Assembly: GCA_004297205.1 (NCBI GenBank)
Contig: SCUL01000002.1
Location: 530,893-594,892 of the forward strand
DNA from: Patescibacteria group bacterium
Lineage (GTDB): Bacteria > Patescibacteriota > Patescibacteriia > 2-12-FULL-57-11
Direction: 5' to 3'
DNA: 64,000 bases
Made by a program: the position numbers and the translations under genes. Each line of letters opens with the position of its first letter. Positions within the stretch are counted from its first letter, which is position 1. The notes beneath the pieces were generated by a model. It was not told the origin of the DNA. It made no database searches and saw only the letters and a program-made list of their open reading frames with translations. Below, piece by piece: positions 6,553 through 48,290 of this stretch.

Positions 6553-7593
6553 ATGGAGGCCCTCGAAAACGCCGACAATCGCCTGGTGGCCGGGGACGTC
6601 CAACAGGAAGACGCCCAGATCGACGTCGGCTTGCGGCCGACGACGCTGGCCGAGTTCATCGGTCAGGAGAAGATCAAGGAGAACCTGGACATCTTCCTGT
6701 CCGCTGCCAAAAAACGCGGCGAACCCATTGAACACGTCCTGCTCTACGGCAACCCCGGGCTCGGCAAAACCACGCTGGCCCACGTCATCGCCCATGAGAT
6801 GGGCGCGAACATCAAGGTGACGAGTGGTCCGGCGTTGGAGCGCGTCGGCGACCTGGCCGCGATCCTGTCGTCGCTCGAGACGGGCGACATCCTGTTCATC
6901 GACGAAATCCACCGGCTCAACAAAACGATCGAGGAAGTGCTCTATCCGGCCATGGAGGATTTCGCGCTCGACGTGGTGATCGGCAAAGGGCCGTCGGCGC
7001 GCACCATCCGGCTGGCGCTCAACCGCTTCACCATCATCGGCGCGACGACGCGGCTTTCCCTGTTGTCCGCACCGCTGCGCGACCGCTTCGGCGTCACGCT
7101 GCACATCAGCTTCTACGAGGAAGGCGACATCCGGAACATTCTGGCGCGCAGTGCGCGTCTCCTTGAGGTGACCATCGACACCGACGCGCTCGGCCTGCTC
7201 GCCTCGCGCAGCCGCCGCACGCCGCGCGTCGCCAACCGCCTGCTGAAGCGGGTGCGCGACTACGTGGAAGTGAAGCATGCCGGCATCATCAGCGCGCCCT
7301 TGGCCGTCGAAGCCCTGGCCGCGCTCGACATCGACCCCATGGGCCTCGACGACGTCGACCGCCGTCTGCTCGGGACGATCATCGAAAAATTCAACGGCGG
7401 ACCGGTCGGTCTCTCGGCGCTGTCCGCCGCCACGGCCGAAGAGATCGCCACCATCGAAGAAGTCCACGAACCCTTCCTGATGCAGGTCGGCCTGATTGAA
7501 CGCACGCCGCGCGGCCGCATGGCTACGGTCCGCGCCTACCAACATCTTGGTTTCGCCGCGCCTGCCCGGCCGGCTTTGTTCCCCGCCGCATGA
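6553..7593 (+). CDS. ruvB: Holliday junction branch migration helicase RuvB
   Basis: LRP...[40 protein letters not shown]. Confidence 0.98.
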
Positions 7594-41470: not shown

Positions 41471-44740
<3,270 letters not shown>

Positions 44741-45144: not shown

Positions 45145-45173
45145 TTGACAAAAACTCCTGGCTGTGATAGCCT
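45145..45173 (+). promoter_or_regulatory. sigma70 promoter
   Basis: TTGACA-17bp-TAGCCT with TG extension. Confidence 0.75.
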
Positions 45174-45179
45174 CTCCCG

Positions 45180-45850
45180 TTCTGCCCGAAAACCCTTCGG
45201 GTAGGAGGACCTCAAAAAACGTACGCCAGCCCGTTGTGGAGGAGAGAGTCCCGCCGTTCCCTTTTCCAAAAGGTAGGGCGGGATGGGATCCCCCGCGCCG
45301 CTGCGGCTTCGGCTGCACCCGGCCGCGCCAGGGAACCCGCACCCCGAGGAGTCTTCGGACACACCCGGGATTCGTCTCCACAACGGGACGGCGCACTTGC
45401 CCCGTCGCATGACGGGGCGCCATCTGCGTAAACGCATGGAGGAGAGAGTCCCGCCTTCCTTTCAAAAAAGGAGTGGCGGGAATACGCGGCACGAACGGTA
45501 CCACTTGGGCTTCGGCTCGACCGGTTCCGGGATGGCCGCGCGGACGGCCGCCCTTCGGGGCAACGTCGTCCATTCCCTCCAGTCGCTTCCGCAGATGTAA
45601 ACAGAGTGGCCGCACCGACCGGGGAGGGGCGCATTGCTGCGATCGCCCTTTCAAACATCACAAGACCGTTTCCCCTCCCCCGTCGGCGCGGTACACAGTT
45701 GCCCGATGTTCGAAGGACCGTCCGCGCGATCCTGTTCGTGCCGACCGTCCTTCGGAAACATCTGAAGGCTCTGGTGCCCCGCCTAAAGCGGGGATTTGCG
45801 TCTTAGCGGACGCGGGAGACGGAGCGATCCGGCTTCGTTTTGGAGGAGCA
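45180..45850 (+). ncRNA. candidate large (~670 nt) structured ncRNA / 5' leader with two similar domains
   Basis: Contiguous stems; TGGAGGAGAGAGTCCCGCC at 45237 and 45437; several TTCG loops. Confidence 0.65.
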
Positions 45851-45852
45851 GC

Positions 45853-47256
45853 ATGGTGACTACCAACAGCCACGAGTCGAGGCGACAGGCCATCCGGGCC
45901 ATGCTCGTCGACGGCGTAACGCAGTGCATGGGCGAGGCGGCCACCGGCAAGGTGTGCAGCCGGATCCACGGCACGGCCGTCCCGTCGTTCGACGGGCGGC
46001 ACTCGATTCCGATCCGCTTCGAGAAGGGCGCGCTCGTGCACGGGGAGATCGTCTTCCTGTGCTCGCTCTGCGCGATCTTCGCGAAGAAGGCGGGGCTCGA
46101 CGTCCTCCCGCTCGACGAGCTCGAGCGCCGCGTGCTGGACACGCTCGGTGAGGCACCCGCCGCACCGGCCGCATCCCCGCCCGTGGCGGCTCCGCCGCCC
46201 GTGATGCCCGCCGTCGGCCGCGTGCCGGCCGTCCGCAAGGACGCGCTGGAACAGCCGGATGTCGCGCGCCCGCAGGCTCCGGCTCCCCGCAAGGAAGAGC
46301 CGATGCTCCAGGCCAAGCGCGGACCGCACCCGCGGTCGGCCCGAGGCCACTTCGTGTGCCTCGAGTCGAGCCGGGTGTTCGAGGAGATCTTCGTCCTCAA
46401 GACGAACAACCTCTGCAGCTGCGGCGCGTGCGACGTGAAGGCCGGCAAGGGCTTCGCGACGCGCAACGGCGACTACACGGGCGCCCGGTTCCCGATCTGC
46501 CCCGTTGGCATCGAGGCCGCGCTGCGCGTCTGCAGCACGGTCCGGCGGGCCGGCGGCAAGCCGGTCTACCTCATCTTCCGGGACGAGGCCGACTGGCAGA
46601 GGTTCGACGAGCGGCGCAAGTACGACGTCGCGCGCGACGCAGCCCGCGGCCACGCCGTCCTCGACGGCGAGCTCGGGAACGATGCCAACGACGTCTGCGC
46701 GGTGTTCATCTGCCGGGCCCCGAAGCCGACGGATCGCGTGGCGACGTTCGATGCGGTGCACAACCTCTTCATCGAGCATCGCATCTGCGGCCGCTGCGCC
46801 CAGTCCGCGCGCAAGCTCAGCAACCAGCTGCGCGAAGGCGGACAGCGCTGGGCCTTCCAGCTGCTGCGCGAGGGTCAGAAGCTGACCCCCAAGCAGCAGG
46901 ACGACCTGCGCCGCGCCGCGAAGCAGCGCCGCAAGGCGACGCCCGCGGCGAAGCAGTCGACGATCTCGTCGTCCGCCCCCAAGGGTTCGGCGCCCCCGGC
47001 GCCGAGCGCGGGCAAACCCTCGTTCGGCGAACAAATCGCCAAGGCAGGCCGGAACATCAAGGCCAAGCAGGCCGAGGACGCCGCGCCGGCCGCAGTCGCG
47101 TCCGCAACGCCGGAGCCGGAGGCCGCCGAGGCCGCCGCACCGGATTCCTCGGAGCCCGCCGCCGAGCCGACGATCGCGTCGGTTTCGGAGGCGGCGCCCG
47201 AAGCACCCGCACCCGCATCGCCCCAGGAGGGACCGATGGGCGGCGGGGCGGGCTGA
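45853..47256 (+). CDS. orphan protein with three putative zinc-finger modules and a disordered Ala/Pro/Glu tail
   Basis: GGAGGAG RBS; QC..VC/FLCSLC, CSCGAC/ICPVG, CAVFIC/RICGRC. Confidence 0.75.
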   Translation: MVTTNSHESRRQAIRAMLVDGVTQCMGEAATGKVCSRIHGTAVPSFDGRHSIPIRFEKGALVHGEIVFLCSLCAIFAKKAGLDVLPLDELERRVLDTLGEAPAAPAASPPVAAPPPVMPAVGRVPAVRKDALEQPDVARPQAPAPRKEEPMLQAKRGPHPRSARGHFVCLESSRVFEEIFVLKTNNLCSCGACDVKAGKGFATRNGDYTGARFPICPVGIEAALRVCSTVRRAGGKPVYLIFRDEADWQRFDERRKYDVARDAARGHAVLDGELGNDANDVCAVFICRAPKPTDRVATFDAVHNLFIEHRICGRCAQSARKLSNQLREGGQRWAFQLLREGQKLTPKQQDDLRRAAKQRRKATPAAKQSTISSSAPKGSAPPAPSAGKPSFGEQIAKAGRNIKAKQAEDAAPAAVASATPEPEAAEAAAPDSSEPAAEPTIASVSEAAPEAPAPASPQEGPMGGGAG

Positions 47257-47408
47257 CGGAAACGTCACCAGTGGCACCGGGCAGCCCCGTCAAGGCGGGG
47301 CACCCGAACGGCAGACGGGATTCCCTCCCCCGTCTGCCGCTCTCTCTCGACAGCATCGCCCCGTAAGCGGTGCTGTGGAGTCAGAGCAGACTCCGAGGAG
47401 AAACAAAC

Positions 47409-47909
47409 ATGTCGGTGAAGAATACCCTCACGCTCACGGCTCAGGACGAGACGACCATCGCCAAGCTGCTCGGCTTCAAGTCCCTCAAGGGCTTCATGGT
47501 CGAGGCATGGACGGCGAAGGACGGCGTCCACGTCGTGCACATCCGCGGCGAGGAGCAGAACGGCAGCACGCCGCGCTTCGAGATCCGACTGGTCCGCGAC
47601 GGGGCCGAGGCGCCGTTCGCCCAGGCCCCGACGAACCAGAACGTCCGCGTGCTGCGCGACCTGATCGAGAAGCGCGGTCTCGCGGAGATCGACCTCGACG
47701 CCTTCGCGCAGGCGCGGCAGCACAAGGGGATCCCGCTCGCGATGGACAACTGGCGGGACGGCCTGCGCCGGGCGGTCGCGCAGCTGCGGGACATCTACCG
47801 CCAGCGCATGCTGCCGATGATGCAGGAGGTCGAGCGGCTCGAGGCCTTCCTCGCGTCCCAGGCGGCGTCGAAGCCGGCCGTCGAGGCCGAGCCCCTCGCC
47901 GCGGAGTAG
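47409..47909 (+). CDS. orphan protein with C-terminal helical/coiled-coil region
   Basis: GAGGAG RBS; 166 aa; strong coding-like codon bias. Confidence 0.75.
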   Translation: MSVKNTLTLTAQDETTIAKLLGFKSLKGFMVEAWTAKDGVHVVHIRGEEQNGSTPRFEIRLVRDGAEAPFAQAPTNQNVRVLRDLIEKRGLAEIDLDAFAQARQHKGIPLAMDNWRDGLRRAVAQLRDIYRQRMLPMMQEVERLEAFLASQAASKPAVEAEPLAAE

Positions 47910-47915
47910 CGGCCC

Positions 47916-47943
47916 CGCGCCTGCCTACCGGCAGGCAGGCGCG
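47916..47943. repeat. short palindromic REP-like element (CCTGCCTACCGGCAGGCAGG)
   Basis: CGCGCCTGCCT-ACCGGC-AGGCAGGCGCG, 11-bp stem. Confidence 0.65.
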
Positions 47944-47945
47944 AC

Positions 47946-47989
47946 GACGGCAGGTGTGGGTATAAACCCCGCCTGCCGTCTTCTTTTTG
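47946..47989 (+). terminator. intrinsic terminator
   Basis: GACGGCAGG...CCTGCCGTC followed by TTCTTTTT. Confidence 0.75.
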
Positions 47990-47991
47990 TA

Positions 47992-48020
47992 TTGACACGG
48001 AGGAAAGGCGCGCTTATATT
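47992..48020 (+). promoter_or_regulatory. sigma70 promoter
   Basis: TTGACA-17bp-TATATT. Confidence 0.8.
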
Positions 48021-48026
48021 CGAGAG

Positions 48027-48248
48027 TGCTTCGCGCGCGCCAGGCTGCGAAGCGGGGAAGGCCTCCACAGTCCCGTTCGACGAGCCCCCGCGTGCACCGC
48101 GCAAGCGGTCCGGCGGGTTTCTCTCTCCTCGTTCCTCGGTCCGACCGCGGACCAGGAACTGCTCCGACGACTGGGCATGGGGAGACGCTTGGCCCCGGTT
48201 TGCAGCCTCCCGCGGACGAAGAAGCCGCCGGATTTTCCGGCGGCTTTT
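48027..48248 (+). ncRNA. candidate ~220-nt stand-alone structured sRNA
   Basis: Own promoter and terminator (AAGCCGCCGG-ATTTT-CCGGCGGCTTTT); long stem 48042-48208; no plausible ORF. Confidence 0.7.
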
Positions 48249-48290
48249 GCATTGGCGGCGGCCGGAGAAATCAAGTACCATGCCGCTGTT

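Follow-up and report, generated by a model that had tools for sequence, protein, structure and literature searches.

Two Complementary Non-Coding RNAs Bracket Orphan Genes between rpoB and ftsK in Patescibacteria: a Candidate Two-RNA Control Unit

The Locus

The window analysed in this work is a stretch of 64,000 nucleotides (nt) from a Patescibacteria genome designated G000 (assembly GCA_004297205.1, contig SCUL01000002.1, positions 530,893 to 594,892 of the forward strand); other G numbers denote Patescibacteria genomes compared with it. Between rpoB (minus strand, start at 44740) and ftsK the window carries a block composed of a large structured RNA, two orphan genes, and a small RNA. A first-pass annotation saw in it a trans-acting RNA switch or a multi-RNA complex with a Cys-rich protein as partner. 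The block and all of its parts were re-found at the positions given there: GAGGAGAGAGTCCCGCC is present at 45239–45255 and 45439–45455, and its counterpart GGCGGGTTTCTCTCTCCTC in the small RNA at 48112–48130. The arrangement raises two questions, namely whether the two RNAs pair with each other and what such pairing could control. The RNA pair is real and widespread, the sources searched contain no description of it, and its two members very probably base-pair in some way.

The large RNA is structured and non-coding, as first annotated, but probably not free-standing. Because no terminator lies between it and the first orphan gene (open reading frame 1, ORF1), it is best read as the 5′ leader of the orphan-gene transcript. 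The leader is about 670 nt long (45180–45852, plus strand), with its start inferred from the promoter at 45145–45173 (plus strand, divergent from rpoB). This promoter has the sequence TTGACA-17-TAGCCT with an extended −10 TG, and a similar one stands at the equivalent place in G001, G002, and G003, but it was detected by a relaxed scan only. Folding z-scores are −9.5 for the leader, −6.1 and −5.1 for its domains d1 and d2, and −5.8 for the small RNA. The fold consists of two paralogous four-way junctions, d1 (45221–45396, plus strand) and d2 (45421–45597, plus strand), each opened by UGGAGGAGAGAG and closed by CUCCA, with P1 of d1 formed by UGGAG/CUCCA. Two-sided changes were found at 11 of the 42 predicted pairs of d1 (six sequences), and UGGAGGAGAG is unchanged in all 10 aligned domain copies. 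Target site 1, GAGGAGAGAG (45239–45248, plus strand), makes up the 5′ strand of P1 and the first junction, and target site 2, also GAGGAGAGAG, lies at 45439–45448 (plus strand); both copies of GAGGAGAGAGTCCCGCC sit within a perfect 19-nt direct repeat. A third stem (45608–45696, plus strand) contains a degenerate, wobble-compatible site GGGGAGGGG at 45621–45629 (duplex −16.3; identical sequence in G002). The window thus has two perfect sites and one degenerate site, and other loci have one to six sites each.

The small RNA (48027–48224, plus strand) folds into a long rod in which an unpaired pyrimidine stretch of 13 nt is flanked by two terminal hairpins; the 11-nt seed in this stretch, UCUCUCUCCUC, is at 48120–48130 (plus strand). 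Its promoter, TTGACA-17-TATATT (47992–48020, plus strand), agrees with the consensus at 11 of 12 positions, and the scan found two sites versus 0.2 expected in shuffles. Hairpins with a U tract were re-found at 47946–47988, where a terminator would close the transcript of the orphan genes, and at 48220–48252, with TTTT ahead of ftsK (both plus strand). The terminator scan of the window reported neither of them.

Two RNA Families

Leader, variable genes, and small RNA recur together in five relatives of the same family (G001–G004 and G006), and neither RNA was seen in the stretches read of G005. In G004, ftsK is inverted and the rod remains with the block. Exact-pattern scans for d1 recovered close relatives only (42 genome, 24 metagenome, and one viral stretches), the remainder being chance. 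The G004 leader (L036:790–3200) spans 2.4 kb and contains few ORFs; its two domains are separated by 1.3 kb, and it has extra seed-complementary sites.

The rod is supported by covariation. In 12 MAFFT-aligned sequences, two-sided changes occur at 33 of 50 pairs, and the covariation score is 0.391, versus 0.167 when shuffled and at most 0.132 when slid; in 24 model-fitted sequences 43 of 44 pairs have two-sided changes, a count in which the fitting leans towards structure. In 11 of 12 homologues all or nearly all of the seed is unpaired; its sequence is near-invariant, and it remains unpaired while the hairpins flanking it are gained or lost. Covariance models, all built on the rod, were run in three rounds and matched 10, then 26, and finally 41 of the same 151 genomes of the class. 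Elsewhere, the final model matched 14 of 151 genomes of the phylum, 22 of 41 relatives of G009, and 2 of 9 and 10 of 42 genomes in two other classes. These counts include training sequences and some weak matches, of which those near E 0.01 may be false; on the other side, the search scored a limited number of candidates per genome, so a miss does not mean absence.

Some genomes differ in rod number or layout. In G072, the rod next to the leader has a variant seed, and a second rod with the canonical seed lies on a different contig (L228, G072:C2:38557–38720); G179 has three rod matches (L196, L200, and L239). In G080 (L236, G080:C17:~6740–6900), promoter, purine site, and seed-bearing rod lie within a single transcript of about 120 nt, and this minimal unit might form a pseudoknot or dimerise. 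The rods of G038 and G147 (L190 and L158), where upstream DNA is short, have seeds ending in UCUCCCA. Outside the window, on the minus strand of G000:C2:627740–628030, TTTCTCTCTCCTC is a 13/13 copy of the rod seed region. It belongs to a structured leader of about 440 nt, behind a consensus promoter and ahead of a gene read from its ORF as dksA/traR-like, and the rod models gave no match there.

Seed and Target Site

A rod usually has a strong promoter upstream, followed by a purine site within about 120 nt. In 22 of 27 loci, a sense-strand site differing from GAGGAGAGAG by at most one transition lies upstream, versus 3 of 27 in the antisense control. With a looser pattern, the purine site was found upstream in 48 of 64 seed-bearing loci, versus 13 in the antisense control; five of 69 blocks (G158, G230, G260, G268, and G317) had been excluded before this count as having no seed match. 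All 48 loci show matching bases at seed position 8 and site position 4, with C opposite G in 35/35 and U opposite A in 13/13. Twelve of the 13 U/A loci are in one clade around G009, and the 13th is in G205, which belongs to another class. U/A is also found in G331, from a third class, and C/G in its family-mate G330. In G268, examined separately, several seed bases are changed, and its seed UCUCUCUUACG is matched by the leader sites UAAGAGAGA and CGUAAGAGA. A further one-base swap occurs in G132, with a C-to-U change at the seed end matched by AAGGAGAGAG sites. Cognate seed–leader pairs form 9–11 perfect base pairs (bp), versus 6–8 in non-cognate combinations (eight hand-picked genomes representing three seed types). 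The first-pass annotation was right in presenting two structured non-coding elements, for which Rfam has no family; compensatory changes in several lineages preserve the complementarity between them. Comparison among genomes demonstrates, at the level of sequence, two RNA families, their linkage, the predicted exposure of the seed, and covariation of seed and site.

The duplex first proposed for the window was longer, with 10 bp followed by a further 6 bp. In homologous loci the core complementarity survives, with 9–10 nt kept on both sides, but the 6-bp extension (CCCGCC/GGCGGG) does not; it varies freely in relatives and is tied up in intramolecular stems of both RNAs. The computed net energy of the 10 + 6 duplex is −6.4/−3.5 kcal/mol, versus −10.2 (site 1) and −7.1 kcal/mol (site 2) for the 10 bp alone. 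In nascent RNA, the cost of opening the sites is 3.9 and 2.8 kcal/mol. Five copies of the 10-mer are present on both strands of the 1.09-Mb genome, and three of them are in the block. Pairing at the window locus appears well supported, unlike its output.

Proposed Mechanism

On balance, we lean towards a protein-independent two-RNA control unit that would act by RNA-triggered transcription attenuation. A strong promoter would drive the structured leader, followed by orphan genes in a variable array. The rod, encoded where the array ends and in the window behind its own promoter, would display its 11-nt pyrimidine seed, and one or several purine sites of the nascent leader would pair with this seed. 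For leaders of the commonest type, a free first site would act as the antiterminator strand and pair into the downstream terminator, giving read-through; once the rod is bound to the site, the terminator would form and the orphan genes would stay off. A rod with its own promoter could hold the array off constitutively, and its loss or titration would switch the array on. As the 3′ end of the array transcript, the rod would exert negative feedback. For the window genus, which has no terminator element, the candidate outputs are opening of a junction, altering translation or stability, or titration of the rod.

A hairpin with a U tract follows the site in 26 of the 32 leaders that have a promoter and a first site. 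In 18 of these 32, the nascent fold, computed on a transcript cut just before the 3′ arm of the terminator, pairs at least 6 nt of the site into the 5′ arm or loop of the downstream terminator. When the site is blocked, the terminator forms in folding, and the same holds for G268 and G331. From such folds we infer a terminator/antiterminator switch and its OFF direction. An own promoter precedes 25 of 64 rods, versus 4 in the control. More speculatively, the leaders could represent a phylum-wide class that senses a dedicated RNA ligand in place of a metabolite, tRNA, or cis-antisense RNA, has natural orthogonal seed codes, and serves as a master switch or feedback counter for orphan arrays; here, the repeated four-way junctions might dock several rods into a protein-free multi-RNA complex. 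This wider picture is possible but doubtful.

Several observations weigh against attenuation by the rod, or against the evidence for it. No site was found in 16 of 64 loci, several of them on short or incomplete stretches, and 5 of the 35 C/G genomes are ties scored as G. Kin are not independent, and the independence of the seed changes rests on kinship labels, not on a tree. The covariation is three-way, since the site has a second pairing partner, an internal complement that changes along with it, and the asymmetry between A-to-G and G-to-A changes is not clean (9 versus 8; 20 versus 53, mostly at terminal positions). The window sites are partly paired in the finished domains, where opening them costs 9.3 and 12.4 kcal/mol, and RNAcofold predicts no intermolecular pairs, loop–loop contacts being beyond its modelling. 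The nascent-fold test was run without a shuffled control, and among the 32 leaders checked no terminator follows the site in G000, G001, G002, G051, G161, and G317. Blocking the site shifts the accessibility of the ribosome-binding site (RBS) only in G000 (from 0.31 to 0.00), not in G001, G002, G003, or G150. For 39 of 64 rods the scan detected no promoter.

As a separate candidate, a domino relay from d1 to the RBS was rejected, being seen in G000 alone of five leaders.

Alternative Explanations

The pairing could be real and yet serve a cis or structural role. The rod would then form the 3′ terminus of the transcript of the array, or be a piece split off from one large RNA, and would dock on the 5′ sites to close a loop or build a multi-RNA complex, with junctions of the d1 and d2 type as docking modules instead of switches. 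The 39 rods without a detected promoter fit such a role, as do the many rods that end straight in a U tract, which could be an operon terminator, and the single 120-nt unit of G080 with both site and rod. G051, G072, and G097 have no long ORF between leader and rod, and the window leader has repeated sites but no terminator. Against this stand the excess of own promoters over the control, which includes the window rod lying behind a terminator, the antiterminator geometry in 18 of 32 leaders, and the extra rod copies on other contigs in G072 and G179. We hold the cis or structural role to be unlikely, though it deserves serious weight. A different proposal makes the rod a general anti-Shine–Dalgarno small RNA that silences many GGAG-led orphan genes, the leader sites being decoys or incidental. 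Indeed, GAGGAGAGA is found ahead of ATG at four other G000 loci, and where this 10-mer follows a promoter in viral contigs, it is mostly an ordinary RBS. Yet a start codon follows GGAG in only 4 of the 32 first sites, and 11 of them have no GGAG; the U/A lineages and G268 lose the Shine–Dalgarno (SD) core and keep the complementarity; and G205, though of the U/A type, has a canonical 16S 3′ end. Given that canonical end and the small number of sites ahead of a start codon, the site pattern is not explained by the ribosome, and general silencing of this kind is improbable. Co-variation with an altered 16S 3′ end was itself rejected for G205; four genomes of the G009 family that were tried had no assembled 16S.

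As its own alternative, the first-pass annotation offered a DNA site present twice forward and once inverted. Such a site, with forward copies in the leader and an inverted one where the array ends, would serve protein binding or recombination. Inverted copies would also be expected to co-vary, and the orientation fits an inverted repeat. This alternative is disfavoured by the position of the seed, in the unpaired bubble of an RNA that shows structural covariation and has a promoter of its own, and by one-sided, G·U-compatible changes in G002, G003, G072, and G150. Moreover, the internal complement falls within terminator hairpins, and the blocks encode no common protein, so a DNA site is very improbable. 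Equally slight is the chance that the rod is a divergent 6S-like housekeeping RNA and its match to the leader a coincidence, an explanation that is largely refuted. Its rod shape, length of about 190 nt, single copy, and own promoter would suit 6S RNA, and no 6S was found elsewhere in G000. However, 6S RNA, which binds sigma70 holoenzyme and templates pRNA, has a central two-sided bubble between two long helices, whereas the bubble of the rod is near the tip and one-sided. RF00013 has no match at the locus (E ≤ 10), and its best score in G000 is 10.9 bits versus 46.4 required. Compensatory changes shared with the leader cannot be coincidence. Of other housekeeping RNAs and their partners, G000 has a transfer-messenger RNA (tmRNA) and an RNase P-like locus at other positions, and SRP54 scored under the cut-off.

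Orphan Genes and Genome Context

ORF1 (45853–47256, plus strand; RBS GGAGGAG at 45842–45848) codes for 467 aa with three Cys-rich units, which are probably Zn-binding. It has five close homologues and falls into six clusters among 1.84 billion proteins (50% library). A structured intergenic segment (47257–47408, plus strand), kept in G000–G002, ends in the RBS of ORF2 (47409–47909, plus strand), an orphan of 166 aa; within this segment, 47313–47337 is similar to the 3′ strand of the leader's third stem. For ORF1 and ORF2, no Pfam, PHROG, or PADLOC family and no usable Atlas lead were found. The Cys-rich protein had been proposed as the partner of the RNAs, but it is an orphan at the level of the genus and not common to the 33 blocks compared. 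Among 100 SD-led ORFs from these blocks, similarity joins only those of G000, G001, and G002 and one other pair. The genes of the block are cargo, not a fixed partner. Small Cys-rich cargo was also noticed in unrelated blocks without detectable homology (L122, L121, L038, L170, L172, and L173), and CxxC occurs in 15 of the 100 SD-led ORFs, some of them spurious. Downstream of ORF2, and outside the RNA pair, is a 28-nt palindromic repeat (47916–47943, no strand assigned), similar to repetitive extragenic palindromes, which recurs in G000 and several other genomes of the class, and also within the leader of G063.

Neither Hfq (PF17209) nor Rho was found in the G000 genome, which is 99% complete. 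The tmRNA (G000:C2:325040–325422, L132), beside smpB, scored 94.9 bits with Rfam and was missed by ARAGORN; it is probably atypical. The locus at C2:673300–673623 is one which, from its motifs, we take to be RNase P-like. ARAGORN predicted tRNAs with anticodon TCA at G000:C2:466556–466630 and with anticodon TAT (tRNA-Ile) at 656866–656940.

Significance

Little has been described of how Patescibacteria control their genes, and neither Hfq nor Rho could be detected in G000. With a conserved RNA pair on either side of them, the fast-changing orphan genes next to core genes would be marked as a co-regulated set, and the pair would give a handle on the timing of their expression. Natural antisense transcription attenuators are described as scarce in the accessible part of PMC3753616. 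If the proposed mechanism holds, the family would offer dozens of attenuators, with at least three natural seed codes that favour cognate over non-cognate pairing.

Relation to Known RNAs

No Rfam family was found for either RNA. At the gathering threshold, Rfam 15 found only four tRNAs in the window. On the block at E ≤ 10, there were 11 weak matches far under the cut-off, with the glycine riboswitch not among them, and on 15 homologous loci at E ≤ 0.5 there were four weak matches, none on a rod. The glycine riboswitch is tandem, and its GGAGA junction resembles the leader domains. No description of the RNA pair was found in the literature searched, which leaves out most subscription papers; in their accessible parts, preprint 10.64898/2026.10.21.760802 has nothing on the pair, and PMC6582626 nothing specific.

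ARAGORN does not call the rod a tRNA. In T-box riboswitches, whose specifier loop and T-box bulge bind tRNA, base pairing between the leader and this trans-acting RNA decides on termination, and tandem modules occur. Here, the ligand would be a dedicated RNA instead of tRNA, binding is predicted to favour termination, and there is no Rfam T-box match. Rsa RNAs of S. aureus have an exposed CU-rich seed and are Hfq-independent. The rod resembles them in its exposed pyrimidine seed and apparent independence of Hfq, but its sites, which are mostly not RBSs, lie in one fixed neighbouring leader and co-evolve with the seed. From Hfq-dependent trans-acting small RNAs it differs in that Hfq was not found in G000. 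A leader-peptide attenuator, which would need a translated upstream ORF behind the purine site, fits poorly as well, with 4 of the 32 first sites having GGAG followed by a start codon, a count that covers GGAG-led starts and leaves leaderless upstream ORFs outside.

In pT181, RNAI is encoded on the strand opposite its target, and both RnaG and RNAI are fully complementary to their targets. The rod gene, in contrast, is on the same strand as the leader, 2.7 kb downstream, and only its 9–11-nt seed, held in a bubble, is complementary. The likeness to pT181-type attenuators (PMC3753616) and RnaG/icsA (PMC2879508), as portrayed in the accessible parts of both papers, is that RNA binding would choose between an antiterminator and an intrinsic terminator. 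According to the same parts, RnaG is cis-encoded on the opposite strand (PMC2879508), and pairing in pT181 begins by kissing of hairpins (PMC3753616).

P4 CI RNA, as the available portion of PMC4825925 describes it, pairs with seqA and seqC in the nascent leader, resulting in premature termination with the downstream genes off. Like CI, the rod is a small RNA complementary to at least two sites of a nascent leader. In that portion, CI arises by processing of the very transcript under its control and is located between its targets, whereas the rod follows the gene array and often has its own promoter. Unlike P4 CI and P1 c4, the rod is chromosomal, beside rpoB, ftsK, or murJ, and has no Rfam match; 73 loci with promoter and site in viral contigs, mostly ordinary RBSs, had no rod, and the best rod match there was at E 0.09. 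Compared with termination by P4 CI, the antiterminator geometry is predicted, by folding only, in the 18 of 32 leaders and in none of the window genus. The proposed attenuation would work like that of the P4 CI and pT181 types but, by this comparison, belongs to neither family.

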